From contig CM119263.1 in assembly GCA_051294375.1 (NCBI GenBank), forward strand, positions 21,309,154-21,373,153: 64,000 nucleotides of DNA. Direction: 5' to 3'. This document shows, piece after piece, positions 7,171 to 52,500 of the stretch. How positions within the stretch are numbered: the first letter of the stretch is position 1; each line of letters starts with the position of its first letter. The translations under genes were made by a program, and so were the position numbers. Origin of the DNA: Paraspadella gotoi (lineage: Eukaryota > Animalia > Chaetognatha). Below the pieces are notes generated by a model. The model saw nothing but the letters and a program-made list of their open reading frames with translations. It did not search any database and had not been told where the DNA came from.

Positions 7171-7195
7171 NNNNNNNNNNNNNNNNNNNNNNNNN
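7171..7195. other. Assembly gap (25 N) separating the plus-oriented and minus-oriented parts of Epac
   Basis: Run of 25 N. Confidence 1.
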
Positions 7196-10859: not shown

Positions 10860-11780
10860 TTTATCTGGCTAGATTTTGGATCGGTTCAGTTTCTTGTGAC
10901 GTCGTCGTCATCGTCATCGGCGTCACACTTTTTTCTTATTATCTCGCCAGATGGGCTTAAGCCTGTCTTGGCTAGATTTAGGATTGGATCAGCTTCTTTT
11001 TGATGTCTTCATCGTCGTTGTCGTTGTCTGCATTGGCGTCACACTTTTTTCTTATATAGTTTTGACTAGGGCTTACAATTTTTTTTTAAATAAAAATTAC
11101 TCTGAATTATGATGGATTTTTATAAAAGTGTGCGATCATAATAAGTTAAAAATTTAGATATGACTTTTTTATCTTTAAGATCTTGGCAATTGTCATATTT
11201 TATATGGATTCAAGTTGTAAATAAAATACTATATTCTAATTTGTATGAAATTGGTACATTTTGTATATTGCAGTAAATCATATTGAAAAGAAAATTCATA
11301 CAAAAAATATTTGAATCAATATGACACATATGATTTTAAAAAACTTTTTTGATGAGAAGCTATATCTAAATTTTAATATAAATAAAAATACACACTTTTA
11401 TAATTTTCAATTAAAAAAAATTATAACAATATCCAATTGTAAACAATTTTAACATTTTTTGTTTTTATTTTATTTTTTAAAATTATATATACTTATTTTT
11501 TTTATCAGTCGCTGCTTTTTCTGATTTGTCTAAAAACAAGGTCAACTCCATAGCGGTTGGATTATGGTTATTATTGCATCAATATTTGGTTATCATCGCA
11601 GCAATATTTGGTTGAAATAAATAGTTCTGTAACTACAATTTAGGTCGTTATAATCTAACCTGCATCTTTTTATATGGATAAATATTGAGCAATTAATCAT
11701 TGTGCATTTAAGATTTTTTCATTAATTTTCTTGGATAGTAACGTCTGGAGAGATCACTATACTTTTAAATTATTTTTTTT
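10860..11780. mobile_element. Family-B HINE/DINE-like non-autonomous repeat (partial, approximate ends)
   Basis: Shares the TGTGACGTCGTCGTC..GGCGTCAC block, GGTTATCATCGCATCAAT units and the GAGATC..TATACTTTTAA end with 53110-54567 and 15900-17640. Confidence 0.55.
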
Positions 11781-13275: not shown

Positions 13276-16200
13276 TCAAACATTCGTCAAGATTCGTTCC
13301 AGAGGCGACTTTGATTTTCCCTCTTCTTCCTCCCCTTCCCCTCTTCCTCCTCTTCCTCCTCCGTCCAACTCCTTCCCGTACAACGCTTGTCGTCCCAAGT
13401 AAGCCTCTCGCTTGAGGCCGAGCCGGACGTCGTCGGGCACGTCGGGCACGACCCAGGCAAGGGCGTCGCGGACGAAGTAGACCACGTGTTCGAAGACGAG
13501 GACGAAGACGACTTTGGCCAACATCACGTGGAACCAGGTGGTCGTCCGAGCGTAGGAGGATGAGGAGGGGGAGCGGTAGTCGCGGTAGAAGCAGGTGCCG
13601 TTAGGAGGCTTTGGACGGGGGGTGGAGTGGATGGTTGTGGAGTGGAATGAAAGGGGATGAGATGAAGATTAGAATTATACCATGATGGAAAAAAAAATTG
13701 TCGCGGTTTGAAAATATCGGTTAATTTCATTGTTAAAAATATTTTTTGGCCATTAAATAGGTTTTATTATGTAATATGACTTCCTGAGGACTGAATAAAA
13801 ATATTATTTTCTAATAGCATGAAATTATTTATTGCATACAATTACTTCCAAAAGAGGTTGTCTCTAACTGTTTTCACCTCTTTTTGATCAAGAGGAATAC
13901 TAATATCATTATTAATATTATATCTCTGACATAATATTTTTTATCAGATTTTGGGCAAAAATTGGTTTTTGGCAAGCAGTAAAAAGGATTGATCCGCTAT
14001 AAAGTAAACCAGTGCATAATAGGATTTTGGATTGTTTTTCCCTTCAACAAAATCTTTTTTTTTTGGACTTGTTTGATACTTCGTTCAGATATATCCCTAA
14101 TGGTAAAAAAGTCCTGTTCTCATTATTGACCACAAAGTTGGCCAGAAAATTTTAACAATCAAAAATATATGCAACATGCAAAGAAGATTTTTTTCCCAAT
14201 TATTATCGTTATTTTACCATGATAGAGAAAAAAATTGTCGCGGTTACTTTCCAGCTATTTTTTGACATTTTAATTTGAAAAATAAAAAATAAAACTTACA
14301 TATCATCAACAGATATAAGACTGCAGCTCTCCTCGCACCATATTCTCCACCATGGAAGCAGGAGACTCAACCATCAGCAGCCTAGGCAGGAAACGAAGCC
14401 CACGAGGCTCACCGGACTATGGACCGAACAATAGAGGCTCTTTCAAGCTCTATGACCACAACAGGCCTAAAAACAGACTCAGTTTGGCAATACTTCAATG
14501 ATATTGAGAAACTTTGGCCTTTTGTGATTCATATGAGCTGTGTCTCATTTATGTACGACAAAAAATACAAAAATTCCATGCACTTTTTTATTAATTTCCG
14601 GTTCTTTTTTATTACTTTTTGAAAGGAAATTAACCAACTTTTCCAAACCGCGACAATTTTTTTTTCCATCATGGTACAAATCTCAAGGATCTTACAGTGT
14701 TTAAAAGCATGACCTATTTACAGCTCATTAACTCCTCAACCACCGCCCCTCACTCCCGCCCCCAACCTCACCTCCACGCCCCCCTCCGGCCGAGTCGCCG
14801 CCGTGAAACTCGTCGCGTTAAATTCTGAGAGGGAGAATCTCGTGAATCCGACGAGGGCGCCGCCGCCGGACGTGAGGCGAAAGTAGAGGCTTTCGACGAA
14901 GTTGGAGGTGAAGGCGATGACGAGGGCGTTGGTGATGACGGCGAGATTGGCGATCGAGGAGAGGATGGCGAACCATGCGCCAATGTTGCGGACGAGTTGG
15001 GGGCGTGGCCGGCGGAGACTGAGGGTTTCAATATATGGTTTAAAATAATTAAAGAAACGTTAAATACAGACATACAGAAATATACAGAGATATATAGTAG
15101 AGTATGAAAAAATCAAGATTACTTTTATAACTACTAAATTAAAATTAATATTACAATCATTCAAAAAATGAATATACTTTAAAATGCTACTTAAATGATA
15201 AATGTTAGTCATAATAGAATATTAATATATTTATTTTTTAAATAGAATGATACGTTTTGGTGAATTTGTTGGCGTCGAGTCTAATCTCGATCACGTTGTT
15301 GATGAGAGCGAAGACGGGCGCCAAGGGGAAGGCCGTGACAAAAAGAGTCACGAAACCGAATTGGATCACCTGAGGGGAAAGAGAGGGTGAGTAAAGGAAT
15401 AAATCACGAGACCGAATAGATGTGTTGATAAGTGGGCTGTTTGTTTATTTAATGATTAAATATTTTTTAAATTGGTTGTGCAAATTTAATAATTAAGCTA
15501 TATATAAAATCAAAAATCAACCCCACTGACTAACCATCTCCAAATACTCGTCGAACAGCCCCAACTCCCCGACGTCCGTCAGCGCCAAGTCGCTCTCCCA
15601 TCGCGTCTTCGTCTCGACCTTGACGCCACCGTCTCCAGTCACCGGCGCCACCTCCGCCGACTTGCGACGACAGCGCCACTCGCGCCACCAACTCCGAATC
15701 AGCGGAATTCGCGGCTGTAGAAATTCGAGAAAGTTCATGAAGATCTGTTTGCCGACCATGATTATGAACATTTGGATGAAGAGTTCGAGCAGGCAGCCGG
15801 CAGGGTCGCAGGCGTCGTAGCGTGCTGGGGAGACGGCCTGAAAAGGGGGTGAAGATGAGGGGGTTGGTGGAGCTACTTAGTGTCAACAGAGTAAATATTG
15901 TGAAAAAATCCTAAAAGAATAGTGATCTCGATAGACGAGAGGAGGAAATAAAGTAATAAAAAAAGAAAGAAAAAAATTTATGCGATGATAACCAATAACC
16001 AATAATTGATGCGATGATAACCAAATGATTGATGCGATGATAACCAAATGATTGATGTGATGATAGTCATTCATTGATGGATGATAATCATTCATTGATG
16101 CGATGATAGTCATTCATTGACTGGATGAATCATTCATCGTAAATAAAACAAACAAATGCGTGTATGAGTGAGAGTGAAAGAGAAAGAGAGAGGGAAAGAA

Positions 16201-17128
16201 AGAGAGAGAGAGAAAGAAAGAGAAAAAACGTGACGCAGAGGCAGACAACGACGATGACGACGTCACAAAGAAGTAAAAGCGATCCAAAATCGAGATAACA
16301 AACAAACTCGTGTATGAGTGAGAGAGAGAGTGAGAGAGAGAGACAGAGACAGAGAGAGACAGAGACAGAGAGTGTACAAACACTTGCGGGTTCGTGCGAC
16401 TTCAAAATAGGGAATTTAATTTGACACCGTTTCCAAACATAAAACGTATTCCGACTAAATCTTGGAGCCATAAAATAAATCCACAAAAATCTCGGATGTA
16501 AATTTGATATTTTGTATTGAGAAAAAAAAGCGGAATAAATGGCGATAAAAAAGTTTTTAGAAGGAAAAAAATAATCAGAGAGAGAGAGAGAAAGATAGAG
16601 AGAAGCTGGACAGCCGCTGGACCGCCGCTGCAAAGCTGACCTCTTTTAAAACGAATATGAATAGGGTCGAATTCCTTTCCTTTCTATAAATAAATATTAA
16701 AAAATAAATATTTTGGTATAGAGCCATATAAGAAAATTTTTGTACATTGAAAGTATTCTTAAAAATGTATAAATTTTTGTGTTTTCACACTAAATTTTTG
16801 ACTCACCTCATTGAGAGGGGCTACCCCTATTCAGAAGAAAATAAGAGAAAAAGAGAGCAACATATAATTAAATGAGAAAGAGAAAGTAACATATAATTAA
16901 AAGAGAAAGAGAGAAGCTTGACAGCCGCTGGAAAGCCGCTGGACAGCCGCTGCAGAGGTTTTTACACGAATCAGAAGAAACAGCAACGGAAAAAAGAGAG
17001 AGAGAGATAGCGACATAAAATTAAAAAAGAGAGAGAAGCTGAATAGCCCCTTTACTTGTCCATGAAACAGCAGTACCTATGGCGCTAGTGGTAGCGCGAG
17101 TTCCTCACAACATAAAGGATTCGGGTTC

Positions 17129-17159
<31 letters not shown>

Positions 17160-20100
17160 GGGAGTAGTCCTTGTGTGTAACGGCCGGTGAACTGCTCGCG
17201 TCATCGTCTTCTACATTGGTGAGCCCACAATATAAATAAATTTTTTTTTTTTTTTAAAGAGGGGGAGAAAGATAGCAAGAGAAAGAGAGAGAGAGAGAAA
17301 GAAGCTGGACAAACCCTGCAGAGCCGGAACTCGTTTTTAGACAAAGCAGTGACGGAGAAAAAGAGAGAGAGAGAGCGACATATAATTAAAAGAGAGATAG
17401 AGCGACATATAATTAAAACGTTTTTGTTTTGTAAATAAAACATAAACAAATATGAATATTGATATGAAACATGACAATTTCAAAGATCTTGATGATTAGA
17501 AGCCATATCTAAATTTTCAACTCCCTATGATATCACACTTTCTATAGCCATGATGGTAAAAAAGCGTGACGCAGACGCCGCCGCCGACGACGACGACGAC
17601 ACAAAGAAGCTGGGCCTTCGCTTAATCTCGCCAAGACGGGCCTTGGCGCCTTTACAAGTGTACAACTATCAAAAATATATTTATAAATTTGTTTGATTGA
17701 TATTTGACTTGGTAGAAGTTGAGTTGACAATCCGGTAAAGTGAGGCCACTAATTAAGCTTCACTCACCGACTCAAAGTCTGACTCACAACTCACGTGAAG
17801 CTCGTCGGAATCTTGAAAAAATTCGTGAAATCGTCCTTTAAAGAAGGCGATGTAAAAGATCGACGCATAAAAGTTGACGAACTGAAAGCAAAACATTTTG
17901 ACGGTAAAGGAATCTTCGTAATCCTTGTCAGTTCGCTGATTCTCCATCCGGGTCAACTTCAGGGCGAGGATCCCGTAGAACTTGTTGAGGATCATGATGA
18001 AGACGAGATTGAGTGTGGCCGAAGTAATCGTCACCAGGATCTTGGAATACTCCACCACCTGAAGGACCTAAGAAGAGGGTAGTAAATTTATGATTAATAC
18101 CCTATATCTAGGCTTAATAGTGAGTGCTAAATACTAGCATTTATTTTGGTTTGTGTTTCATTCGAAGAATGGGTATTTTTAAATCGCCAAAACAAAACAA
18201 ATACTTAAAAAATAGTTTGTTTAAAAAAAATTTCTCAAGGACTCTTCAAAAAATCAAACAAAAATTTCGTCTTTTATTTAATAAATTATCAGGAAGAAGC
18301 ACAATAAAAATAATTTTATAGCAAGATGCATATTATATTTTTTGTTCAATTTTTTTAACGAAAATTAATGCGGAGATGATAATCGATATCTCTTAAATTA
18401 ATAATGTATCTGAGGCCTGAGTTAAGTCGCCTCACTTATATAGATTGATCTATCGTTTTAACTCCATCCGAGTCATCAATCCGAAATGACCTTACCCCAA
18501 ATTCACCTCCTCACCCACTCGTCCTCACCTCTTTGTCCGTTGCTTCCTTCCGCAGCTGCCAAAACGCGACCCGCACGGCCCCGCGATAAACGATGACGCC
18601 GACGATGGCGACGAGGACGCAAATGACGGCGAGAACAACGACGGCGACGCCGGAGAGATAACGCGGTAGGCGCGCCCAGGGCGGGAAGTAGGGCTCGAGG
18701 ACGTGGGTGACTGGATTTCGGCGTCTCTCGCGACAGCGCGCCTCAAAATCGGGGCGGAAGCTGGAAAAGCGGATAAGGGATGAGTTGGGTAGGTAAATTT
18801 AAAACAAAATCTTACCCAAACAAACGTTATACCAACGTTATACCAAAGTAAATCAACCCGAACCAACTAATAACCATAAAAAAAATTTTAAAAAAACGGA
18901 AAAAAATAGCCAAAACTGATCCAAAACACAACCAAAACAAACAACTGACTTGCTCTCGTCCTCGAAATCCTCGAGGAGATCCCATTGATAGGCGATCCTC
19001 GCCTGACGTCTTTTCCAAAACTCGAGAAACAAAACTGACCAGACGGACATAAAGAAACAAAAGACAATCGTGAATTCGTTGTCGACAAGATGGACCAGTT
19101 TCGAGTAGAAGCAGGAATTCTATGATAATCGAGAAGAAAAAAAATTAAATTCCAAAATCCAAATGACTAAAAATAAAGAATGAATAAATACACAAATGCA
19201 AAATAAATCAATCAATCAATCAATCAATCGAACCTGCAATTTCCAAAAAGGGCAGAATGGCTCCCTGCACTGGGGACACATTATGAGATTCCCGTCGACG
19301 GAGTCATCGCAAATCTCGCGCGAGGCGACGGAGGATTCCAGCGTTGCAACTCCGTAAGCCGTCGCCGCCAGCCCCAGCAGCGCCGCGGGAAAGAGGAAGC
19401 GCGTGTAGAATCCCAACCAGGCGAAGTAGACGGCGACTTTCTCGCCAAAGTATCTTGGCAGATTGAAGAGACATGGACAATAGAGTGATGTGAAAATGAT
19501 AAAATTTTAGAAAATTAAAATTTAACATATAAAACATGAACATAAAAACTATTAAAAATACTTTGGTAAATTTATTTTTTAATTTTATACATTAGTGGTC
19601 ACCAGTGAGCTATATTTATATATAGTAATAAGTATATAATAGGCTAAAATTTTAAAATGCAAATTTTCAAATTTTAAGACCGATTTTCAATTTCCAGCTT
19701 AAAAATATAGTTTTTTGTAATTTTAACCTACTTAATAACATATTTTTTGAAAAAGATTTATATTCTTTTATCAACTTTTAATGAGGAATCTAAATCTGTT
19801 CTCAGAATTTAAAAAAAAAAATTTTGAAATTTTGACATTATATAAGGGTAGTACTATATACAAAATAAGCTGACTGGGCTACTATATTTATAAAAAAAAA
19901 TAACTACAGATTAGTATTCACTAATATGATAGTTTTCACGATATAACTGCTAAATTTCAATTCCAAACTTTCACTTCACCCTAATGGACAATCAGAATAT
20001 TTATCATTTTCAATTTTACTATGTATACATTCAAGGCGCTAAAATCATTCCAGAATCTTCTTCCTCTTCCGGAATCCTCTTCCTTTCTGAATTTTTATTC

Positions 20101-21924
20101 ATCTGTGATGATATATTTAAATAATAAATCGTTCCACCACATACTTTCTGACGAGATTCAATGGTTGCCGCTTGTAGAAATATTTGAAGTTGCCCCAAGT
20201 GTGATAGAGACGTTCACGGTCAGAGATAGGGACGCCGGAGAGCGTGGTGTCGGATGCTAACGACGCCGCGACGCCGGTCGACGGTGACGCCGGAGCTGGG
20301 ACGATGGCGGCGTTGAACGCCTCTCCGTCGTGAAGAGAGAAAGCGGCGCTAAAATCGCCGATGTTAATCAACTGTTCGATTCCGATTTTTCGCTCCTGAA
20401 AATCCGAGGTTGGGTTCAAAGATAATTATTACAAGGAAGACTTTTGACTTGAGCTTATACATAATTTACACACAATTAATACATTATACAGTAATACATA
20501 ATTTATACCTAATTCATATTTTTGATAAAACTATGGAGAGATATGCGATATTTGTAACTAATTGTAACAGTTTTTGATATTTAAAAAACAATTTACTTAT
20601 TGTACTTATTTTAGTTTCTCTATTTATTTCAGCTACATTACATAGCTCTATAGTCTATACTCATCAACGCCCAGGGAACAAAACAATACTGTAAAAAAAC
20701 GTTAGAATTTAGAAAAAGAATTAAAGGGTTTTCGGCGAAACTTAGTGATTTTTAAAAGTGATTTTGCGTCTCGTATCGTCAGCGCCTCGCATCGCATCGC
20801 GCCATCTCATATCTCTCGTCTCTGTAGCGTCGCCGTTTTACCTTACCCTACCAACGTATTTTTTACAGCAGGTTTTACTGTAAAAACAAATTTACAAGTT
20901 AAAACTCAATTATAGATTGGTTTAAGAAAATACAATAATATGCAAATGAAATTAATCGTTTATTATAAAAATTTAAAACCAAAATCATCCCGGTGAAGTC
21001 AACGGCCAACATCCTAAAAAACTCCGCCCATGCCTTACCTTTTCCTCCTCTTGGTAAGGTGCCCTCGCCAAGGCGTCGTACACCAGCCGCACCCGCTGAG
21101 CCGACGAGAAAAAGTTTTCTTCGTCGAGAATCCGGAAAACGTCGGCATTTTGTCGATCAAAAGCGAGGGTGTAATAGTCGGTCTCGCGCTCCTCGGGAAC
21201 GAGGCGCGGGTCCACGTCGAAGGCCGCGTCGATTCGCCGCAGCGCGCGACGGATGGCCTCGCGGCAAAGCAGCGCGCTGCAGCAGCACTCTTCCGCTTGA
21301 ATGAGGTCGTCGTCGAATATGGCGTCGTCGTCGGAGAGACGAATCGGCATCTTCAATCGGAGCATCTCCGCGCGGAGGCAGAGGACCTTGAACGTAAGTT
21401 AAATGTGAATTTTTTTTGTGTGTGTGTCGACCTGCATTGTGAACTCGCTGCGATTACACCCGTACCGTATCCGAATGCGATGAGGTCAATCTCGCCCATC
21501 CACATCCTCATCTCACCTCAAAAGGCGCGTGGACTTTGACGAACTCTTCGCCCGTCTCTGCCTTCGCCGACTCCACCTGAAGCCCGAAGCGGCTCGTCAA
21601 CGTCTCCAGAAAAAAACGGCGTCGTCTGCTTCTCTTCTTTTCCTCTTCCTTGTTGTTATCTTTTATGAAAACCAAAATGTAATCGATCTTTCGAACCCCG
21701 TCGTCGAAACGAACGCCGGTTTTGACTGCGTCGGGGGCGCCTTTGCCGACAGTGGCGGCGCCTGTGATGCCATCAACGGCGTCGGAAAGAAGTTGTGCGG
21801 GAAGATCAAAGTCGCTGCGGTAAGGGTCGTCGAGGGAGGCGGCGTCGCGAGATGCGGCGTCGTCGGCGTCGTCCGCGAGGTATGCAGCGTTGAATTGGGC
21901 GCCGCCGCCCGCCTGACGAGACAT
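13276..21924 (-). CDS. Anoctamin/TMEM16 family Ca2+-activated channel/scramblase, 11 coding exons, ~965-975 aa, nested in Epac intron 3
   Basis: Exons 21924-21517, 21386-21039, 20395-20145, 19453-19234, 19119-18950, 18760-18529, ~18058-17795 (alternative sites 18067/17768), 15837-15535, 15369-15254, 15018-14772, 13608-13276; all GT-AG and phase-consistent. Motifs [106 protein letters not shown]. Confidence 0.95.
13680..14674. mobile_element. MITE with ~50-bp TIRs and TA TSD, in the last anoctamin intron
   Basis: TA|CCATGATGGAAAAAAAAATTGTCGCGGTTTG..GGTTAATTTC and GAAATTAACC..AAACCGCGACAATTTTTTTTTCCATCATGG|TA; an extra internal left end near 14217. Confidence 0.85.
15900..17640. mobile_element. 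Composite family-B HINE-like repeat region in an anoctamin intron
   Basis: Reverse-complement similarity to 53110-54567 (ATTGATGCGATGATAACC units, GCGGAATAAATGGCGATAA, CTGGACAGCCGCTG blocks). Confidence 0.55.
17048..17229 (+). mobile_element. Degraded tRNA-derived element (A box TGGCGCTAGTGG, partial B box GGGTTCA), right end ..CCCACA
   Basis: Pol III boxes followed by a poly-A run; right terminus is the reverse complement of TGTGG as in the twister elements; no TSD found. Confidence 0.35.
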
Positions 21925-22338
21925 CTGTTGGGAAAAATCTAAATCAAAAACAAAACGCTAAGAAATAGATAAAATTATAAAAACTATAGACGAGATGAAT
22001 TATCAAATTATAAATATTTATATACGAACCTCAGAGAGTAACAAAAAATAACATTTTAAAATGTTATCGATAAAAAAATCAGCGTTCAGAAAAACAAAAT
22101 TCAGAAAAAAAAGGTCCACACGTCGGAACCACATGGAGCGAAGTGATGGACAGACGACTCGTGGTCGATCCGGAGTTCAGCATCTGGTTAATGATGTCCC
22201 GGATAAGATTTCTTCTAATCCGTAGGACTTATCTTTTCGATTCAAATGGACGAAATTTCATGTCAAAAAAATCTTAAAAGCATATAGGATCGAGCCTGCC
22301 TTTGATGATAACCAATTCATTGACGAGATGAGCCAATT

Positions 22339-22387
<49 letters not shown>

Positions 22388-22402
22388 AGAGAGAGAGAGA
22401 GA

Positions 22403-22441
<39 letters not shown>

Positions 22442-22623
22442 GCTGGACAGACGCTGCAAAGCCGGAACTCGTTTTTAGACAAATCAGAAGAAGCAGTGAT
22501 TTTGTATTGAGAAAAAAGCGCGGAATAAATGGCGATAATAAAAGTTTTTAGAAGGAAAAAAATAATCATAATTTTTCAAAAAACGAACGATCACGCAAGA
22601 GATCGTACAGAGAGAGACAGAGA

Positions 22624-22655
<32 letters not shown>

Positions 22656-22761
22656 CAGAGAGAGACAGAGAGAGAGAGAGAGAAAGAATATGGACGGACG
22701 CTACTGAGCCGGAACTCGTTTACTCGTTTACTCGTCGCCTAGTGACGGTAGTGAAAAAAAA

Positions 22762-22818
<57 letters not shown>

Positions 22819-22923
22819 AGTTGGACAGTTTTCCCGCCAACGAGACGCATTATTAGGTCACTCTCGTTTACATCGGTTATCCGTTGCCTCGCAACGGCGG
22901 CGTCATCTCGGTCAAGTTGATTT

Positions 22924-23570
22924 TTAGTCGGTTCTGCTTATCAGCAGATCCCGACTCTATAATTCACTTTGTCCGTCCGTCGGTCCGTCCATCCTACCTT
23001 AGCAAAAAACACCATTTACTCATGATTGGATGGATGGATTTGAATGAAATTTTGTGTGTTGGTAGGGAAGTGTGTGATTGAGCTGGATATGATGTTTCGA
23101 TGGAATCGTCCAAGTGGAAATGAGTTTAAATGGAAAAAACAAAAAAATATATTTCACTAACACCAATTGCTCATGAGTGGATGGGGCGATTGACTTTGAA
23201 TTAAGCTGGAAATCAAGTTTCGATGGAATTGTCTTAGTGGAAATGAGTTTAAATAGAAAAAACAAAAAACCTGTTTCATTAATTGATTATGCTTCTTTTT
23301 CCTTTTATATCAAAAGTAAATGCAGGATGTATTAATTAATGAAATAATTAATCAATTAGTCAATTAATTAATAAATAATTAATTAATCAGTCAATAAATC
23401 AAGTCAATCATTATTGGCATTATTCTCATCGTCGTCATTGCTTTTGTCGTGGTTAGTGACGAAAAGACCTAAAAACAAACAATTAATTAACTTGAATAAT
23501 TTAATTATTAATCAATTATTTACCGATAATGATCGTGGGCAGATCCGACATTGTTTGCTCAAACTTGTTT
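22924..23570. mobile_element. Family-A DINE-1/HINE-like non-autonomous Helentron
   Basis: Subterminal inverted repeat GTCGG(A/T)TCTGC/GCAGATCCGAC, short inverted repeat at one end, (GTCC)n microsatellite, terminus ..AAACTTGTTT, T-rich insertion site; four more copies in the window. Confidence 0.75.
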
Positions 23571-23579
23571 TTATACACG

Positions 23580-23812
23580 TATGGTGGACTAAAATCCACC
23601 AACCGTTCTTCAGCGGCCATTGGTGCCGGAGGCAAGTCATTCGCCTCCCAAAACAAAGGTCCGGGTTCTAGCCCGGTGGTCGCCTAACAGTTAAGAGGGA
23701 CCGGGCGCTTAACCCGCCTGTAACACGGTGTTACAGCCTGATCCGAAGCTCAGGGACTGCTTATATTGAACGGTTCTGTCACTAACACATAACAATAATT
23801 ACTGTCTCTTCA
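23580..23812 (+). mobile_element. Family-1 tRNA(Gly)-promoter + twister element, copy 2
   Basis: Perfect TSD CACG|TATGG...CTTCA|CACG; tRNA-like 23613-23683 (acceptor GCGGCCA/TGGTCGC, TCGCCTCCCA anticodon arm, B box GGTTCTAGCCC). Confidence 0.92.
23687..23760 (+). ncRNA. Putative type-P5 twister ribozyme (family 1)
   Basis: P5 CAGUU/GACUG; GG-GA-(C)CGGG; UAA-CC; GC; P3 CUGUAACA/UGUUACAG; P4 CCUGA-UCCGAAGC-UCAGG; T1 UCCG:CGGG; T2 GC:GC; predicted cleavage 23710|23711; P1 and P2 are minimal. Confidence 0.7.
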
Positions 23813-23939
23813 CACGTAACATTTCCGTTGCCATCGAAACGCGTTATTAGGTCATGTTCCTCGACATTGTTTACTCGTTGCCCCGCAACGGCCACGAAAT
23901 CAAGGTCAAGTAAGTTATTCGTCACTTTTTCTAAAAAAA

Positions 23940-24705
23940 ATCAATGAAAATCTCAGATATAAATTTGGGATTTTTGAGAAAAAAGCGCGGAATAAATGGC
24001 GATAATAAAAGTTTTTATAAGGAAGAAAATAATTAGAATTTTTCAAAAAACGAACGTACAGAGTGAGAGAGAGAGAGAGAGAGAGACAAAGAAAGCTGGA
24101 CAGCCGCTGGAATGCCGCAGTACAGACACAGCAGAACCTGAACTCAATTTTAAACAATTCAGAAAAGGCAGCGCATGACAAATATAACACATATATAATT
24201 TAAAGAAATAAATGAAAAGTCAAAAAATGTTAAAATGGTTTACAATTGGAAATTGTTACAATTTTTTCCTATCATAGATTGTAAAATATTTTATTTTATT
24301 TGTATTAAAATTAAGATATAGCTTCTCATTAAAAAGGTCTTTTGATTTGTAAATTAGATTAAATCATTTCTATTATAATGAGTACTATAATCTCATTTGC
24401 ATATTGCAGTAAATGATAATGAAGTGGAAATTCAAATAAAAAATCCAAATGTAATATAAAAATTTTAAAGCTATTTCAAGATGAGAAGCCATATCTAAAT
24501 GATATCGCACATTTCATCGTAATTCATAATAATTTTTATCTAAAAAAAAATGGTAAGTCCCAGCGAAAACTATAAAAGCGTAGTAGTTTTTATAAAAATA
24601 CAGCGTGACGCCGACGACAACGACGACGACGACGACGACGTTACACAGAAGCTCAACCTAAACTTACTCGAGCCCTCACCGGCTTCGCCGGCAGGCTCGA
24701 TAAAG
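23940..24705. mobile_element. Family-B HINE-like repeat (approximate ends)
   Basis: Terminal hairpin CGAGCC..CCGGCTTCGCCGG..GGCTCG and shared blocks with 53110-54567. Confidence 0.55.
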
Positions 24706-25527
24706 AATTAAGAACTTTTCCCGTCGAAGTTTGGTTGCTTAAATTTGTTTCCAAGATAAGTTGAACCGGGTCCTTCGCTTCGTTGTCATGAGCCGGGATG
24801 TATTTTTTTTTTTCAATTAAAAAAATAATCGTCAATATTCGATGAGAAATTAAGAAAAATCGTTACGCAATTATAATACCAACTGTACTTTGTAGTAAAA
24901 AGTAAAAGGAACCAGAATAAAATATTTAACTCCTAACTAAACTAATAACAGTTTTTTTAAAATACTTTTTAAAATGAAATTTAAATTTGGAAAATGAAAG
25001 TGAAAACAATAGACTCATCGGAAAGCGAGAAATCTGAAAGTCACAAAAGAGAGACAAATGAGGACATTGAAGAGCCAACACGAAAAAAGTAAAAAAAGTA
25101 AAAAACAAGTTTGAGCAAACAATGTCGGATCTGCTCACGATCATTAGCGCTATTTAATTATTTAATACAAACTATATAAACTAAAAAAATATTTTAATTA
25201 ATAAATTAATTAATTTTATCCGAAATGTTTTTAGATCTTTTCGTCACTGAACACGACAAAAGCAACGACAACGATGATGGCGACGACGACAATAATGCCG
25301 TTAACGATTGTCTTGATTGATTGATTAATTGATTAAAAAGTAATTAATTTATAAATAAATTGATTGATAGAATAATTAATTAATAGATAACTAAATAAAT
25401 TGATTGATTGAATAATTAATTGATTGAATAATTAATTGATTGATTAATTGACCGATTAATTAATTATTTATTAATTAATTAACTAATTGATTAATTCACT
25501 GATTATTTATTTGATTAATTAATACAT

Positions 25528-25778
25528 TGTGGCAGCAAGACTTAAAGTTGCCTCACTGCTGTCCATCCTCGTCTCAATGGCTGAGCAGGCTAAATCATCT
25601 CATTCCATCCGTGTGTCCCGGGTTCAATCCCTGGGTATCCCGGTTCTGACTTAAATGTGACGGTGCCGGTATAAACATGCCAGTGACAGGAGGCGGTCAC
25701 TGAGGGTCCGCAGCCCCTACACCAGTTGGTGAGATACCCCGCGCCCCGGTTATCACAGACTATCCTCCCGTTGCCATA
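25528..25778 (+). mobile_element. Family-2 tRNA(Gly-like)-promoter + twister element (solo-LTR-like)
   Basis: TSD ACAT|TGTGGCAGC...GTTGCCATA|ACAT; imperfect terminal inverted repeat; A box TGGCTGAGCAGG (25578), B box GGTTCAATCCC (25621); interrupts a HINE copy cleanly. Confidence 0.85.
25645..25725 (+). ncRNA. Putative type-P5 twister ribozyme (family 2)
   Basis: P2 AUGU(25655-58)/ACAU(25675-78); GA then CGG; short P1 hairpin; UAA (25672-74); GC; P3 CAGUGAC/GUCACUG; P4 AGGG-UCCGCAGC-CCCU; T1 CCG:CGG; predicted cleavage 25672|25673. Confidence 0.78.
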
Positions 25779-28489
25779 ACATCTTGCATATATATTTAAT
25801 ATAAAAAGAAAAATAAGTTTTTTTTCGTTTTTTTCATTTAAACTCATTTTCATATCCAGCTTCATCTCACACTGTCCTACCCACACACAAAATTTCATTC
25901 CAATCCAACCAGCCAATATCGAGTTATTGGAGCTTTTTGCTAAGTGGGACAGATGGACGGATTGATTGACTAATTAAGTAATTATTGATTAATTAATTGA
26001 CTAATTGATTTATTAACTGATTAATTATTTGATTTATTAATACATCCTTCATTTACATTTAATATAAAAGAAAAAGAAGCATAATCAATTAGTGAAACAG
26101 GTTTTTTGTTTTTTCCATTTAAACTCATTTCCACTCAAACGATTCCATTGAAACTTGATTTCTAGCTCAATCACACACTTTCCTACGCAAATACAAAATT
26201 TCAAGTCAATCGCCCCATCTACTCTTGAGTAATTGGTGTTCAAATAGTGAAATTTATTTTTTTATTTTTTCCATTTAAACTCATTTCCACTCGGACGATT
26301 CCCTCGAAACTTCATATCCAGCTTAATCACACACTTCCCTACCCACATACAAAATTTCATTCCAATCAATCCATCCAATTGGAGCTTTTTGCTAAGGTGG
26401 GACAGACGGACAGACGGACAGACGGACATCGTTTTTTTTTTTTTTTTTTTTTTTTTTGCATAATTTATCATAATTTGATGTTCTGACATGACATAAGTGA
26501 ATTTCCGACAAGATTGAGGATGCGGACCGACGGTCAGACAAAGTGAATTATAGAAAAAAAGAAAAATAGAAAAAAAAAGGGAAAAAAAAGGTGAAATTCT
26601 GTTGCGAGTTTTTGGCTTCGTTGCGCAGGAAAACTTTTCGCCGTCGATGCGACGAATTCGCGAATGAAAGAAAACGAGAACGAATCAAAAAAAAAAAAAA
26701 AAAAAAATTGAGAATGACTTGAGAATGGACAAACTTGAGATAGAATTCAACAATGAATTCTAGAACAAACAAGACTGAAATTGAACGAACCTGAAAATGA
26801 ATTACCAACTTGACACACTTGACACTTGACACTTGACACACAACTTTACACAACTTGAAAAAGTCTGACGACTTGCAGTTGATAAAAGAAATGTTTGAAG
26901 ACAAAATATAAATTTATTTATTAAGTGAAAGTGATTGAAGAAAAGCACAACGTATTAGTGCAAGAACATCCAAAAAAAAACGAAAAAAACAAAGTGCGAC
27001 GTAAAAAGCAAATTTGCCACTGACGCCGCAAACAAATCGACCGGTGAAGCGACGACGACGACGACGACGACGGCGATGACAACAACGACGGAGAGGATTG
27101 CACAGCAAGATTCCAAAGCACGAATTGAAGATAAAAGAGATGCAAGTTGTCGGACTTGTCAAGTGATATGACTTCAACCTCATTTTGAATGGTTTCCTGA
27201 GATAAAAGATTAAAAGTCACGAGAGTTAAGTTAGGAATGTTAAAATATTTGCTTTCCCCGGAATGGAAGTGTATAATTCAGTTTTTCTGGTCAGTTTCTT
27301 TATGCAAAACTTAACAACTGGAATTTAAAAAAATGGTAAAAATCTAGAATATATTATAAACTTCATGAGGACTTAAAAACAAATTTAAGTATCGATATGC
27401 AGTGAATATTTTTACTTTTGTTATAATCCTACTGAGAAAAAGCTAAAAAAATTACAAAAGAGCAAATACGTACCAAGTAGATTACTAACCTAACAAACTG
27501 TGGGCGGGAGAGAGAGAAAAATTCGGTAAAAATTATATATATATATATATTAAGGCGGGCCAGAATTTAATATCTTTTACGATATAAATAGTCTGCAATA
27601 AAAATATTTTGTCCTTTTCAAACCAAATTGACTTATGATGTTAGATTTTGATTAAATTAATTTTCTTCATGCGTGGGAGCATTTTTTTATTTAATATGCC
27701 AGGTTCACTAGGAGTGAATAAACAAGACTGTGAGAGAGTCTTGATTGAAAACTTGCAGAAACCTGCTATGTTATTATCTTGTAAGTGTGATAAAGGCCTT
27801 AAACCACCAAAGCCTGTCCAAATTTAGGGACAAGATAGCTTATTTATTAAATAAATGGATAATTTTGATATTGATTGTACCAATTTTATATAAGAAATGC
27901 TAAAGAAAGAGTGAGAGAGAGAAAGAGAGAGAGGGCAAAGTTTCCAACACAGAGTTGAGAAAGGATAGAGCTCAAAGTGAGCTGCCCAAGTAGCCGCTGA
28001 TGCAGTTTCTCCCTCCATCCCCCAGGAGGCAGAAAGGGAGCTTGCTGCTGAAGAGCCAACCGCGCCCACCACAGCGCAAATGAAAGATAAGCAGAAGCGC
28101 CCTAAGAACGTGGGCCACTTGTCCCTCCCCTACCACCAGGGGATCACTGAGTTATTGGTGATATGATATGATAATAATGATAATAAAATAGAGAAAAAAT
28201 TATTATTTTATTTTATTTTTTATTATTTTTTCACAATGTTTGTTTTAATATTTGTTTTAACTTAACTTACTTTTTATTTAGAATGGATTTTAGCTTTTTG
28301 GAAAAAAAATATATTAATAATACACGTACAGCAGCATACGTCTAGAATTTTTGAGACGGCAAACTCTGTAACTCGAGTACAAATAATAATTTTAAAGAGA
28401 GCTTTTGTCTTGATATGGCTACTCCCCCTTCGGTAAGCTATTGCTCTACGACAAATTTTGGGACGTCAGAACTTATGGTTAAAGGTAAC

Positions 28490-28560: not shown

Positions 28561-29044
28561 TTTTTTAAAAAATGTTGTTCAAATTAAATTATATAAAGCT
28601 GTAGGTTCACTTTTAATTTTTGTGGGGAAACAAAAAATTCATTAATGTTAATATGCGTTCGGCCAAATCGTCTTCTGGTTATCTTGTTGGTCTCTGAGTC
28701 GTAATTTGGCAGAGATTTTGACATCTGAGTCCCAAGTTTTCCGATTTGCGACGACGATTAATACACAGAATAAAGCAAATATCTGGCTTATATTTAATGT
28801 TTGAAATTTAAGAAAAGTCAGAGGCAGTTGCCTCGTTGTTAAGCCGAGACGTCGAACGTTTTCACGTTGCTTTTAAGGTGTTTTATTAAGTGTTTTTAAC
28901 CTCTTGTTTATTGTGAAACAACTGAAACTGTTTTTATATATCGTCGCCTATTGTATCAATATTAATAAATAAGCTAATGATTGAGAGAATAAAAGAATGA
29001 AATTGTTTCGAAAAAAGAATAATCTAAGTTTTCGGTTGTCATGA

Positions 29045-29971
29045 AAACAAGTTTGAGCAAACAATGGCGGATGTGCCAACAATAATTAAGCGGTAATGAG
29101 CTAATCCGATGATAAATCATGGTAATTTTTCTGACTCTCAATTTGGATTATAACAAATCATAACAGACTTCTTAATAAATCTATGAAAAAATCTATAAAT
29201 CAATTGATCTATCAATCATTACCAGAAGCTGTGCCAACTTGCATAATTTGGTCATCTTTCATAATTTCATCAACTTGCATAATTTGGTCAACTGGCTTAA
29301 TTTGGTCAACTGTCATAATTTGGTCAACCAATATAATTTGGTCAATTGGCATAATTTGGTCAATCAATCAATAAATCAATAAATCAATCAATCAATTAAT
29401 CATTCAATCAATCAATCAATCAATCAGAGAGAGATAAAGAAAAACTTTTAATAATTGACATAAATATGTCTTTTGGTTTTCTGTTTTAAACTGTTTTCCA
29501 CTCCTACGATTCCATCAAAAACTTTTATCCAGCTTAATCACATAGTTTCCTACCCACACACCAAATTTCATTTCAATTTATCTATCCATTTTTAATAAAT
29601 AAATAATTATGAGTAAATATAAGTAAATATGCTTCAAGTAAATATGACTTTTATTTTTTCCATTTACACTCATTTACACTAGCACGATTCCATCAAAACT
29701 TTATATCCAGCTTAATCATACACTTTCCCATCCACGCACAACATTTCAATCCAATCCATCCATTCAATCATGAGTAATTGGAGTTTAATGCTAAAGGGGA
29801 TGGATGAATGGACGGATGGACAGACGGACATCATTTTTTTTTTTGCATAATTAATCATAATTCATGTTCTGATATGATAAAAATCATTTACCGACAAGAT
29901 TATGGGGTAGACCGACGGACGGACAAAGTAAATTATAGAGTCGGAATCTGCTAATAAGCAGATCCGACTAA
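29045..29971. mobile_element. Family-A HINE-like element containing a 21-bp tandem array (~29235-29365)
   Basis: AAACAAGTTTGAGCAAAC start, GCAGATCCGACTAA end; CAACTTGCATAATTTGGT-type units. Confidence 0.75.
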
Positions 29972-30321
29972 AAGGAAAAGAAAAACAAAAATTTATATTA
30001 AGGTTTTTGAAATTTAAACTAAATTTAACTAAGACTTCGACGCGGAATGGAATGGTAGAATTGAAATCCCACTCAAGGTAAATTTTTACAATAAACTGCA
30101 ATGTCCCAAAAGTGGTCTTAGAGCAATGGCTTACCAAAGTGCTCGATAACAAGACAAAAACTCGCTTTCAAATTATCATTTGTACTCGTATTACAGATCT
30201 AGCCGTCTTAGAAATTCTAGACGGATGCTACTGTACCTAAAAGGCGACAGATCTATTTTACTTTTTTAGCTCTTTCTCTCACTCACTCACTCACTCACTC
30301 ACTCACTCTCTCACTCTCTCT

Positions 30322-30355: not shown

Positions 30356-30932
30356 TCTCTCTCTCTCTCTCTCTCTCTTCGCTCTTTCCTTCTTTCTTTC
30401 CTACTTTCTCTTCACATGTTATCTTCTCTTTCTCCTCTTCAAAAAAAAAAAAAAAAAAAAAATATGTCAACGTCTCTTAAACTAAACTTCAGTTTTTTCT
30501 ATTTGCCCGTTTTTTTATTTCTTCTTTATGTTTACCTCTACTGTTTTCCGTCAACGGAGGCGAAAAAGAATTATTGGGTTTTTCGTCGTCGTCGTCGTCA
30601 TCGTCATCGTCGTCGTCTTCCATGTCTTCTTCCTTTGGCTCGTCGTCGTTGTCGATGTCAAATTTCGACGAGGTTCTCAAGAGACGTCAAAGAGACGATT
30701 CTCCCGATCCTCGTAACGAGGCGCTCGATTCGCCGAAGTGACAAATCGAATAGACAAAAGAACAGCGAAGGTAAATTTAAAAAAAATCTAGATCCACCTT
30801 GGAGAATTTTCCGCTAAATAAACGTGACTTTTATAGCCTTTCTTATCTTTTTTTTTTCCACTCCTTCTCTAGTTCTGAAGTAAAATCATTGAATATGAAA
30901 ATTTATCAACTAAATATTGATTAATCAGTGAA

Positions 30933-31056
30933 AAACAAGTTTGAGCAAACTATGTCGGATCTGCCCACGATAATTAAGCGGTAATCAGCTAAATAAATTT
31001 TAAAAAAATTAATAAAATAAAAAATAAATAAATAAATAAATAAATAATTAAATATA

Positions 31057-31087
<31 letters not shown>

Positions 31088-33610
31088 ATACTATAGTAGA
31101 AATAATTACAAATAAAGTACAAATAATTTTTTTTAACTATTATTTTTTTTTCACTTGCTTTATTTTTTTACTCGCATCATTTTTTAATTTGCTTCATTTT
31201 TTCAACTTGCTTCACTTTTTCAACTTGCTTCATTTTTTCAACTTGTATTATTTTTTTCAACTTGCATCATTTTTTCAACTTCCATATTTTTTTAACTTGC
31301 ATCATTTTTTTATCTCGCTCTATTTTTCTAACTCGCCTAATTTTTTCAACTTGAATAATTTTTTTCAACTGGAATAATTTTTTCAACTTGCATAATTTCT
31401 TTAACTTGCATAATTTTTTCAACTTGTATAATTTTTTAAACTTGCATAATTTTTAAACTTGCATCAGTTTTTTAACTCGCATCATTTTATTAACTTGCAT
31501 AATTTTTCAAATTTGCATCATTATTTTTAACTTGTATCATTTTTTTAACTTGCATAATTTTTTTTAATTTGCATCATTTTTTTAACTAGTATCATTTTTT
31601 CAACTCGTATCATTTTTTCAACTTGCATCAATTTTCTAACTTGCATCATTCTTTCAACTTTCAACTTCATCTTTTAACTTGCATCATTTTTTCAATATGC
31701 ATAATTTTTTTAACTTGAATCATTTTTTCAAATTGCATCATTTTTTCACCTAATTAATTAATTAATTTAAAACATTCATGAGTAAGCATAAATATAGAAC
31801 CAAATTCCTAAACTCGATCCCAAACCTTTTTTCATAATGTTTTTATATTTTCGGATAGAGAATAACTGGAATAATGTAAATCTTAAGTTACGTCTAAATT
31901 GGCCCATGGGTTTAGAAGAAATTGATCAAAAACAACCAAAGTTCCTCTCCCTTTTTTCAACATTCTCGCCTTTTAAGATTTTTGCCGATTCTGACTTCCT
32001 CTTACAAACTTTAATTTCGCTAGTTAATTTTTTTTACTTTTTTCTGGTGGAAAAGAAAGATAAATACTTAGGCTGTGATGGGGTGAATAATATTTTGTAG
32101 AATTTTGTAAGCATGCTTGTAATATCAGTCAAGTAAATATTTAAGTGAAATAAAAATTATAATTTATTTATCCAAAAAACTTTAAAGTTTTACTAGAGTA
32201 CAATGTAGCCTTTTTTCTTTCAGAATCACTAAAAAGAATTTAATTTTCATTTATTTTTATGGGGTTTCATTAGTTTTAAAATTCATTATAATTTTGACTT
32301 AGTTTGACACTCACCCTGTAAAGAGGTTTCAGCAAAAATAATTCTAATATTGTAACTTGTATGTGCCAAATGATTATGGCTTCATTTTGGTACTATTGCC
32401 ATCCCTGTATCTTTGTTCCTTCAAAAGATATCAGGAAAAATCAGTTTTTTCTCTCAACCTTCCTTTTAATTTCTTATTAAATAAAAATTTCACTGTGTCA
32501 AACCAGACCAATGGACTTTACCACGTTGGTTTACTATGAAGAGTTTGGTCAATAATGAAAAGAAAAATTTGACAAGCTCTTGAGACAAGAGGCTTTCTAA
32601 ATCTCATAATTTGAAGTAATATTTATAATGTTAACATACCCTAGCCCCGTTTACAATTTTCGAAAAGCAAAATTTCCCATTCATTTCTATAGTAAAAACG
32701 AGGTTTGAAAATTCTCCGGAGATGACTAGTGCATTTCCCCTGGCTTGTTTGATATTATTAAATCCTTTAACAAATGCCATAAGACAAATTTGACTAGCTC
32801 TTAAGATATAACGCTATCGGAATCGTGCATTTTTACAACTGTTTTTACCCGAATTTCTGGCAATCGCATTTGCAATTTGAATAATCAGATTTTAACGGAA
32901 ATCTCTTTAAGAAAAATGTTGAATTTTTTTTAAGCGAGATTCGTCAACTTGACTTTTTGTTTTTTCCATGCAAAGTCATTTCCACTCATCCATTCCATCA
33001 AAACTTTATATCGTGCTCAATCACACACTTTCCTACCCACACACAAAATTTAATCTCAATCTATCCATAAATTATAATTATTTCGATTAATTATGGATTA
33101 AAAAAGATTAAAAAAGATTCAAATAAAAGTGATCTATGTTTTTCCATCTAAACTCAATTCCACTGGCACGATTCCATCTAAACTTTATATCCAGCTTCAT
33201 CCCACACTTTCCTACCCACACACAAAATTTAATCTCAATCTCACCATCCAATTATGATTAATTCGAGTAATTAAGGGTTAAAATTAGTAAAAAATATTTA
33301 AGTTAATGTGACTTTTGTTTTTTTCATTTAAACTCATTTCAACTCGCACGATTCCATCGAAACTTTATATCCAGCTCAATCACACAATTTCCTATGGTCC
33401 TACCCACACACAAAATTTAATTCCAATCCATCCATCCAATCACGAGTAATTGGACGGACGGACGGACGGACGGACGGACAGACGGACAGTCATCTTTTTT
33501 TTGGCTTATTTAGCATAATATGGTCTTTTGATGTGATAAAAATGATTTACCGACAAGATTTAGGGGTGGTACCGACGGACCGACGGACCGACGGACCGAC
33601 AAAGTTATTT
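30933..33610. mobile_element. Family-A HINE-like element (expanded) with a ~20-bp tandem array at ~31150-31745
   Basis: Same left end; roughly 30 degenerate TTTTTCAACTTGCATCA units; (GGAC)n near the right end. Confidence 0.6.
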
Positions 33611-34591: not shown

Positions 34592-34800
34592 TATGGTGGA
34601 CTAAAATCCACCAACCGTTCATCATCGGCCATTGGTGCCGGAGGCAAGTCATTCGCCTCCCAACCCAAAGGTCCGGGGATCTAGCCACGTGATCGCCCTA
34701 TCAGTTATGACGGACGGGGCACTTAACCCGCCTGTAACACCTTGTTACAGCCTGATCCGAAGCTCAGGGACTGCTTATATTGAACGTTTCTGTCTCTTCA
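34592..34800 (+). mobile_element. Family-1 tRNA+twister element, copy 3 (3' internal deletion between CTGTC repeats)
   Basis: Perfect TSD AATT|TATGG...CTTCA|AATT; twister fold 34701-34774 with GA-CGGG pairing to loop UCCG. Confidence 0.9.
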
Positions 34801-37973: not shown

Positions 37974-38632
37974 NNNNNNNNNNNNNNNNNNNNNNNNNNN
38001 NNNNNNNNNNNNNNNNNNNNNNNNNNNNNNNNNNNNNNNNNNNNNNNNNNNNNNNNNNNNNNNNNNNNNNNNNNNNNNNNNNNNNNNNNNNNNNNNNNNN
38101 NNNNNNNNNNNNNNNNNNNNNNNNNNNNNNNNNNNNNNNNNNNNNNNNNNNNNNNNNNNNNNNNNNNNNNNNNNNNNNNNNNNNNNNNNNNNNNNNNNNN
38201 NNNNNNNNNNNNNNNNNNNNNNNNNNNNNNNNNNNNNNNNNNNNNNNNNNNNNNNNNNNNNNNNNNNNNNNNNNNNNNNNNNNNNNNNNNNNNNNNNNNN
38301 NNNNNNNNNNNNNNNNNNNNNNNNNNNNNNNNNNNNNNNNNNNNNNNNNNNNNNNNNNNNNNNNNNNNNNNNNNNNNNNNNNNNNNNNNNNNNNNNNNNN
38401 NNNNNNNNNNNNNNNNNNNNNNNNNNNNNNNNNNNNNNNNNNNNNNNNNNNNNNNNNNNNNNNNNNNNNNNNNNNNNNNNNNNNNNNNNNNNNNNNNNNN
38501 NNNNNNNNNNNNNNNNNNNNNNNNNNNNNNNNNNNNNNNNNNNNNNNNNNNNNNNNNNNNNNNNNNNNNNNNNNNNNNNNNNNNNNNNNNNNNNNNNNNN
38601 NNNNNNNNNNNNNNNNNNNNNNNNNNNNNNNN
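37974..38632. other. Assembly gap flanked by (CT)n and (AG)n
   Basis: Run of N. Confidence 1.
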
Positions 38633-38809: not shown

Positions 38810-39427
38810 AAACAAGTTTGAGCAAACAATGTCGGATCTGCCCACGATCATTATCGGTAATTAATTAATTAATAATTAAATAATTCAAGTTATTTAATTA
38901 ATTAGGTAATTGATTAATTAATTTGATCCGAAAGCAATGACGACGATGAGAATAATGCCGATAACGATTGATTTGATTTATTGACTTATTAATTAATTAT
39001 TGATTAATTAATTGACTAATTGAATAATTAACTTATTAATTATTTGATTAATTAATATACTTTGCGTTGACATTTAATATAAAAATAAAAAGAAGCATAA
39101 TCAATTAGTGAAACAGGTTTTTTGTTTTTTTCCATTTAAACCCATTTACACCCAAACGATTCCATCGAAACTTGATTTCCAGCTAAATCATACACTTTCC
39201 TACCCACATACAAAATTTCAGGTCAATCGCCCCATCCACTTATGAGCAATTGGTGTTCAAATAGTAAAATATATTTTTTTTGTTTTTTCCATTTAAACTC
39301 ATTTCCACTCAGACGATTCCATCGAAACTTTATATCCAGCTCAATCACACACAAAATTTCATTCCAATCCATCAATCCAATCACGAGTAATTAGTGTTTT
39401 TGTTAAGGTGGGATGGACGGACGGACG

Positions 39428-39462
<35 letters not shown>

Positions 39463-39633
39463 TGACTGACTGTCAGACAGACAGATGGACGGATATCTTT
39501 TTTTGCATAATTTATCATAATTCGATGTTCTGACATGATATAAATGAATGCCTGACAAGATTGAGGGGGCGGACCGACGGACCGACAAAGTTAATTATAG
39601 AATTGGGATCTGCTGATAAGCAGATCCGACTAA
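38810..39633. mobile_element. Family-A HINE-like element (full length)
   Basis: AAACAAGTTTGAGCAAACAATGTCGGATCTGCCC ... GATCTGCTGATAAGCAGATCCGACTAA; reverse orientation relative to 22924-23570. Confidence 0.8.
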
Positions 39634-39636
39634 AAA

Positions 39637-52383: not shown

Positions 52384-52500
52384 GATCGAATGTTGCCGGA
52401 ATGTTGTGGAAAATGCTACGGAGGTTATGTTTGCGCTTTGCTTTGACTGTTTCTCGCTTTCTTTCTTGCGATGTCAATATACAGACCCGTTACGAGTTTT

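Follow-up and report, generated by a model that had tools for sequence, protein, structure and literature searches.

Integrase-type repeats of the chaetognath Paraspadella gotoi combine a tRNA-like head with a candidate twister-like ribozyme fold

LTR retrozymes, in which a self-cleaving ribozyme lies within a long terminal repeat (LTR), have been described from plants, where the ribozyme is a hammerhead (PMC4918200; this and the other papers cited here are drawn on in part). Their RNA is predicted to lack the R repeat, to be circularised and to be copied by Ty3/gypsy enzymes (PMC4918200). In animals, the Helenus group of TRIMs (terminal-repeat retrotransposons in miniature) carries tRNA-like LTRs and target-site duplications (TSDs) of 4 bp. 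Kojima links animal 4-bp TSDs to gypsy, and TRIMs driven by RNA polymerase III (Pol III) are held unlikely to encode functional RNA (Kojima 2024, PMC10886601). In the papers drawn on, the only role shown for a twister ribozyme in eukaryotes is in a non-LTR element (PMC8501958). Here we analyze a 64,000-nucleotide stretch of the chaetognath Paraspadella gotoi (assembly GCA_051294375.1, contig CM119263.1, positions 21,309,154–21,373,153, forward strand; hereafter the window). A repeat at window positions 23580–23812 had been put forward, in a preliminary description made from the letters alone, as a solo LTR uniting a tRNA-type Pol III promoter with a permuted twister ribozyme. We find support for integrase-type insertion of this repeat and a resemblance to a twister that is well above chance by our own sequence descriptor. 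We tentatively interpret the repeats, at a little less than an even chance, as solo LTRs of a Pol III-driven, gypsy-mobilised, non-autonomous 'twister retrozyme' with an RNA-cutting twister.

BLAST finds four copies of the repeat and no fragments in the window, all on the + strand, 209–234 bp long and 88–95% identical in pairwise comparison. They are listed here with the TSDs and the outer parts of the focal copy; P and T numbers denote stems and pseudoknots of the ribozyme-like fold described below.

23580–23812, + strand: whole element, focal copy; 233 bp, TA..CA termini, contig ends piling up at both; putative solo LTR
23576–23579, no strand: left TSD, CACG; the joint of the empty site skips 237 = 233 + 4
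23813–23816, no strand: right TSD, CACG
629–856, + strand: second copy; 228 bp, TSD AAGC/TAGC; worst-damaged ribozyme core, with one core G absent and T1 broken
34592–34800, + strand: third copy; 209 bp, TSD AATT; lacks 26 bp close to the 3' end, palindrome disrupted as well as one P2 pair
40453–40686, + strand: fourth copy; 234 bp, TSD CCAC; two outer P4 pairs broken
23580–23612, + strand: putative U3-like part, 33 bp ahead of the tRNA-like part; 7-bp hairpin at 23582–23601, 5' arm of a long-range stem at 23601–23609
23761–23812, + strand: putative U5-like 3' part; 3' arm of the long-range stem at 23767–23775, terminal CA, without TTTT

Every copy starts with TATGG and finishes with CTTCA. 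Three copies are flanked by perfect TSDs, each different (CACG, AATT and CCAC for the copies at 23580, 34592 and 40453), the duplication at 629 has a single mismatch, and across the four copies the TSD cannot be extended to 5 bp. No poly-A tail and no internal TTTT is present in any of the four. Terminal inverted repeats (TIRs) were sought at the copy termini, where only 4–6 of 15 terminal bases match, and none was found. The same ends recur in Logan contigs from three studies (runs X9, X1 and X2), on which all family-wide statements are based; the run richest in matches may derive from the source sample itself. Contigs with unrelated flanks (agreement 0.41–0.45) stop at 23580 in 25 (X9), 131 (X1) and 74 (X2) cases, and contigs stop at 23812, with unrelated flanks beyond, in 54, 231 and 110 cases, respectively. 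The empty focal site is represented by three contigs in two runs, which skip 237 bp, that is, the element plus one copy of the TSD. Summed contig depth suggests very many copies, depth not being equal to copy number. An LTR integrase, and not target-primed reverse transcription, leaves such a trace: ends that are fixed, a TSD that is short and of constant length, CA at the terminus and sequence retained upstream of an internal promoter. Because the ends are fixed among unrelated flanks, the empty site is short of exactly 233 + 4 bp and no TIR is present, integrase-type insertion is supported. On all of these points the comparison bears out the preliminary description, which had reported the fixed ends, the 4-bp TSDs differing from copy to copy, the lack of poly-A and of a terminator, and some 33 bp with a hairpin ahead of the tRNA-like part, and which had proposed an integrase rather than the target-primed insertion typical of short interspersed elements (SINEs).

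The same evidence bears on two other routes of insertion. In the first, the repeat would be a tRNA-headed SINE, or a non-LTR retrozyme mobilised by Penelope/Naiad, inserted by target-primed reverse transcription. A tRNA head joined to a ribozyme is known from the Sm-alpha repeats of Schistosoma (PMC6765202, PMC7229834), and twisters are present in a non-LTR element (PMC8501958). Against this stand two fixed ends without 5' truncation or inversion, a 4-bp TSD in every window copy and a predicted cut site that lies at neither end. Whereas tRNA-derived SINEs start at the tRNA 5' end and have a 3' tail and variable TSDs, the element keeps 33 bp upstream of the promoter, has no tail and has a TSD of fixed length. 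The SINE-like Sm-alpha hammerhead repeats and the animal non-LTR retrozymes do have, as is predicted for the element, a self-cleaving ribozyme behind a Pol III promoter, but they form tandem arrays, use a hammerhead, possess neither LTRs nor a primer-binding site (PBS) or polypurine tract (PPT), and have longer TSDs (PMC6765202, PMC7229834). The Perere-3 twister T-variants of Schistosoma mansoni are similar in their weak or absent P1 and their tie to a retroelement; they differ in being P1-type and in beginning a non-LTR element, one that is autonomous, at its 5' end, where the TSD adjoins the cut (Liu et al. 2021, PMC8501958), whereas the element described here carries its fold internally and has integrase-like ends. 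We consider insertion by target priming very improbable. In the second route, the 4-bp TSD and the terminal CA would belong to a DNA transposon like the miniature inverted-repeat transposable elements (MITEs), of the Ginger type or another DDE element with a 4-bp TSD. Elements of this kind generally need TIRs, and the absence of one leaves this reading scarcely credible. A Helitron or other HUH element was also considered as the source of the terminal hairpin and is ruled out by the TSD, since HUH elements are not known to generate one.

Three further observations concern the family as a whole. C>T or G>A changes at CpG account for about 9 of the 15 variants of the family that are not private to one source (23605–23782), which suggests methylation-driven decay of the copies. 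In run X11, from another organism, two low-depth contigs match the last 38–61 bases of the element (23752–23812); they may represent a related family or cross-contamination. Neither the small share in X11, of which four contigs were compared, nor that in run X10 is used as evidence. Candidate relatives in metagenomes, sought through the 3'-end motif, amounted to two chance matches in unrelated contigs.

The 3' half of the element holds the part that resembles a ribozyme:

23687–23760, + strand: P5-permuted twister-like fold; P5 23687–91/23756–60, P3 23718–36, P4 23737–54
23695–98, 23699–700, 23710–12 and 23713–15, + strand: P2 3' strand, GA, UAA and P2 5' strand of the fold, aligned to known twisters
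23701–03/23743–45 and 23716–17/23748–49, + strand: pseudoknots T1 and T2, aligned to known twisters
23710–23711, + strand: predicted self-cleavage site between U and A, placed by analogy to twister L1
23704–23709, + strand: P1 linker, 6 nt, self-complementary; intact in two of the four copies

The layout was compared with Table 1 of PMC8501958 and with the Rfam Twister-P5 consensus. Type-P5 twisters (RF02684; PMC5408937) have the same order, P2'-GA-T1'-P1-UAA-P2-GC-P4/L4, the same 11 identity positions and both pseudoknots; the element differs from them in having no P1 hairpin, a P2 of two clean pairs beside a bulge, both P3 and P5, and no recognition by Rfam. All 11 identity positions are present in three copies and 10 in the copy at 629, outside which the core bases tested, in L1, T2 and L4, are complete. 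P3 is a perfect 8-bp stem in all four copies, T2 is formed in three, and T1 is complete, and P4 has 5 bp, in two each. Compared with the S. mansoni table, the G-C pairs of T1 are swapped on both sides (CCG/CGG versus CCC/GGG). The 20 positions of the element listed as variable include no core position, which is no evidence of conservation, since about 0.4 of the 11 would be expected among them by chance. A P2 of 3 bp is not disqualifying, as the natural P5 twisters L016 and L018 pass the Rfam cut-off with three pairs, and P1 can be deleted with a near wild-type rate in vitro (PMC5408937).

How often such a fold arises by chance was estimated with a strict twister descriptor, applied in three permutations to both strands and scored to a maximum of 13. 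The copies score 12, 12 and 11.5, and the copy at 629 fails. Scores of 11.5 or more were obtained in 7 of 473,758 shuffles, and the maximum in 518 other tiles of the window is 9. With a looser descriptor, 47 of 139,842 shuffles reach the score of the copies. Readings as a P1-type permutation or on the minus strand score lower. By our own descriptor, then, the resemblance to a twister is well above chance.

The 6-nt P1 linker cannot form a hairpin. Its calculated energy is 0.0 as a hairpin and −8.3 kcal/mol as a 6-bp duplex with a second copy; a linker is palindromic by chance in 4,298 of 120,000 6-mers. It could thus pair only between two ribozymes, as in double hammerheads: Penelope hammerheads cleave as dimers through short palindromic stems (PMC6765202). 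A second feature is the 9-bp stem between 23601–09 and 23767–75, found by chance in 407 of 20,000 shuffles. Since transcription by Pol III is predicted to start downstream of its 5' arm, the stem would need a second LTR, a circle or read-through. The palindrome and the long-range stem, noticed after the fact and each with a p of about 0.02–0.04, are modest evidence in favor of a two-LTR RNA.

Upstream of the fold lies the tRNA-like head:

23613–23684, + strand: tRNA-like head, predicted internal Pol III promoter; acceptor stem 23613–19/23677–83, A box 23621–32, B box 23665–73, T-arm-like hairpin 23661–76, extra hairpin 23628–48

The acceptor stem has 7 bp, and the A and B boxes, identified with their general consensus patterns, are 44 bp apart. 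In the contigs, two common variants of the acceptor stem (20–30% and 18–42% of depth) preserve its pairing. A combined descriptor of the head fits two of the four copies and 47 of 17,094 shuffles. The tRNA-like head of the preliminary description is therefore recovered in its acceptor stem, its T-arm-like hairpin and its A and B boxes, each with one mismatch, but not as a tRNA: ARAGORN reports no tRNA, Rfam has no tRNA match in the window or in two single copies, and the D and anticodon arms are not evident. The head is best read as a putative promoter relic.

A tRNA-like promoter within a short LTR-like unit is also a feature of Helenus TRIMs (TRIMp3), and the preliminary description had correctly stated that these animal elements have tRNA-like LTRs and 4-bp TSDs. 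The element shares with them the A and B boxes and the TSD length, solo LTRs are known among them, and some Helenus LTRs likewise start with TA and finish with CA (PMC10886601). In most of those inspected, the tRNA part is close to the 3' end and in many cases followed by a T run, whereas here 128 bp containing the twister-like fold follow. By eye, no close sequence likeness to the element is apparent among the Helenus LTRs inspected in the supplement of that paper, nor was a twister seen among the inspected entries of its Data S1, in which four loop motifs gave one irrelevant match. A 12-base match to Ajax LTRs, also by eye, is expected by chance.

Two entries in Data S1, Helenus-2_SyJa and Helenus-2_SyUm from Synergus wasps, appear on inspection to contain, about 30 nt past the tRNA part, a type III hammerhead complete with a GUC site, CUGAUGA, GAAAC, three stems and a 12-bp complement between loop I and loop II. 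Their 277-bp LTRs are without TTTT and belong to elements with a tRNA-Trp PBS, a PPT and a 4-bp TSD (Data S1 and Table S1, PMC10886601). They follow the same order as the element, namely a short 5' part, a tRNA-like part, an apparent or predicted ribozyme core about 30 nt on and a 3' part ending in CA; they differ in having an apparent hammerhead instead of a twister-like fold and an internal part, with PBS and PPT, that is known. In the text of that paper, as far as it is covered here, hammerheads are mentioned only in a reference title. We regard Helenus-2_SyJa and Helenus-2_SyUm as candidate animal LTR retrozymes. As a two-LTR precedent of the layout, they raise our confidence in the retrozyme interpretation of the P. 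gotoi repeats.

Plant LTR retrozymes (PMC4918200) have in common with the element a non-coding sequence and a 4-bp TSD, and they have solo LTRs and a ribozyme within an LTR-sized unit, both of which are predicted for the element. They differ in their plant host, type III hammerhead and size of about 330 bp; the element is from an animal, has a P5 twister-like fold, a tRNA-like promoter and 233 bp, and is known from DNA copies alone. [quoted passage not shown]

A number of observations weigh against the retrozyme interpretation. Rfam has no twister match, RF02684 included, at E ≤ 5 in the window or at E ≤ 10 in two single copies; the positive control, 20 phage loci out of 40 fetched, gave 5 above the cut-off. 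A covariance model built from eight phage P5 twisters ranks two of the copies second and third in the window (E 0.24 and 0.38), but these matches are not significant and fall in another register than the proposed fold. The P1 linkers of six Rfam-matched phage P5 twisters measure 17–25 nt, compared with 6 nt here, a difference that would account for the weak recognition of the element by such models. Both twister descriptors were written after the element had been seen, and with the looser one 3 of 518 ordinary tiles reach 23 of 24, on a level with the copies. No copy is free of defects in the fold. In the focal copy, positions 23699–23703 read GA-CCG, which breaks the middle pair of T1, although the family majority restores it with a G at 23702 in 96–99% of contig depth. 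Among the four close copies there is no covariation, no pair having changed on both sides. A competing, mostly rod-like fold exceeds the nested part of the twister in stability by 6–18 kcal/mol, pseudoknots uncounted; it may represent the kind of off-state known from circles that bear ribozymes, or the resemblance may in part be a by-product of a hairpin. The A and B boxes each miss a conserved base, and the descriptor of the head fits only two of the four copies. No partner LTR, PBS or PPT lies beside any of the four window copies, all of which are single. Three X1 contigs join the end of the element to its start, at low depth and with unread letters between, as would also fit solo copies that are neighbors by chance. 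Even in the Synergus elements, Pol III read-through is uncertain, as the internal parts hold T4 runs. The twister claimed in the preliminary description stands in the order of UAA, GC, P3, P4 and P5 and in descriptor scores well above chance; its GA-CGGG pseudoknot is broken in the focal copy, and the proposed search with Rfam twister models came back empty. That description was silent on the short, bulged P2 and on the inability of P1 to form a hairpin.

Several of these observations would be expected if the repeats were solo LTRs of an ordinary Helenus-type TRIM whose RNA replicates through a normal R repeat, the fold being a dead relic, a captured fragment or the by-product of a long imperfect hairpin. 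The blank in Rfam, the weak score with an independent model, the more stable rod, the missing P1 hairpin and the lack of covariation all agree with this, and several fish Helenus LTRs are also without TTTT and, by eye, free of ribozymes (PMC10886601). What argues against an ordinary TRIM is the rarity by chance of 11 core bases with both pseudoknots and four ordered stems, as measured with the strict descriptor, together with the retention of T1 in the family majority. We judge this explanation unlikely.

The single copies and the end-to-start joints raise the question whether the 233-bp unit is the entire element, with no internal part, copied from a unit-length circular or tandem RNA by a borrowed integrase and primed other than through a PBS and PPT. 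Single units are indeed all that is seen, in the four window copies and at hundreds of contig ends, and the three X1 contigs join the end of the element to its start. However, this joint is of low depth, nothing in the unit is evident as a priming site, and some Helenus families persist only as solo LTRs (Kojima, PMC10886601), which makes this improbable. Alternatively, the repeats could be solo LTRs of a gypsy element that is autonomous and transcribed by Pol II, its LTR having gained a tRNA-derived SINE and a ribozyme; the ends and the TSD fit a gypsy integrase equally well, and coding capacity in an unseen internal part is possible. An intact ribozyme in each LTR would be expected to strip the mRNA of its cap and poly-A, and the LTR size and tRNA part resemble those of non-coding Helenus LTRs. 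We find an autonomous origin quite improbable. A crude look through the window for motifs of reverse transcriptase remnants gave no credible match. The Rfam scans of the window and of two single copies contain no hammerhead, and a match to mascRNA (E 1.2) is not significant.

For the retrozyme interpretation, the anatomy of the element is seen as DNA and each RNA step is predicted. The master element would have the form LTR-PBS-internal-PPT-LTR. Pol III would start inside the 5' LTR and encounter no terminator, and two twisters, probably joined via their palindromes, would cut between U23710 and A23711. The RNA released in this way would have no terminal redundancy, with a 5'-OH and a 2',3'-cyclic phosphate, and could be closed into a circle by an RtcB-type ligase; RtcB circularises animal retrozyme RNAs in vitro (PMC7229834). 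Reverse transcription of the circle would then rebuild the LTR. In the retrozyme model, copying of a circle can give solo-LTR, unit or multimeric DNA for integration (PMC4918200), and solo copies may dominate here because reverse transcription of a circle could yield solo-LTR DNA. [quoted passage not shown] The dimer would check for a complete two-LTR transcript, replace the terminator and deliver a circular RNA template.

In the published literature, covered with few subscription papers and with Repbase and Dfam left outside, neither LTR elements with a twister nor LTR retrozymes of animals nor twisters acting as dimers came to light. The combination of a tRNA promoter with a twister in an LTR, of which the preliminary description knew no earlier account, was accordingly not found in print, although the two published Helenus LTRs of Synergus show this layout with an apparent hammerhead that carries no annotation. 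Two proposals are new here: the putative pairing of the P1 palindrome between two ribozymes and the apparent hammerhead in these two LTRs. If the interpretation is correct, an animal LTR element with a Pol III promoter and a twister would link LTR retrozymes, eukaryotic twisters and Pol III TRIMs, and would be a natural counterpart to engineered tandem-twister systems for circular RNA. It would also suggest a way for a Pol III element whose 5' LTR has no terminator to end its transcript. Together with the Synergus hammerhead, it would establish 'Pol III LTR retrozymes' as a class into which two or more unrelated ribozymes were recruited.

The phage set contains an arrangement of its own. In the pairs L003/L016, L012/L033 and L004/L018, each contig holds two P5-type twister matches. 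The two matches are separated by 240 bp in two of the contigs, whose sequences are nearly identical, and by about 2.9 kb in the remaining one, and one per pair has a 3-bp P2.

Genes in the window include hunchback (45049–52473, − strand) and anoctamin (13276–21957, − strand), and Pfam identifies a cNMP-binding exon at 2224–2346. The hunchback zinc fingers match those of protostomes from many phyla at 58–79%, and one further protein at 92%; by themselves they place the host among protostome invertebrates and no closer. The copy at 629 seems to lie in sense orientation within a short intron (596–909) between two exons, which we take to be Epac/RAPGEF-like from their peptide. This copy has the worst ribozyme core, as expected if selection opposed cutting of the pre-mRNA, in one case only. 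The focal copy is located just past the end of a member of another interspersed family, found at 22970–23572 (− strand), 25097–26555, 29041–29973, 30927–31057, 32950–33584 and 38810–39635, with internal subrepeats of 156–180 bp and a fixed end that adjoins T runs; this family presumably resembles Helentron/DINE-1-type elements. To the right of the focal copy, positions 23813–24750 hold a third repeat, a mosaic that is more diverged and contains AG microsatellites; it has relatives near 10959–11535, 16471–16636, 22389–22917 and 53107–54126. N gaps are present at 7171–7195, 37974–38632 and 61155–61164. The window starts with a 171-bp inverted repeat, 99% identical, at 1–171 and 290–458 around an AG microsatellite, and a long imperfect palindrome lies near 44.4 kb (44166–44724).
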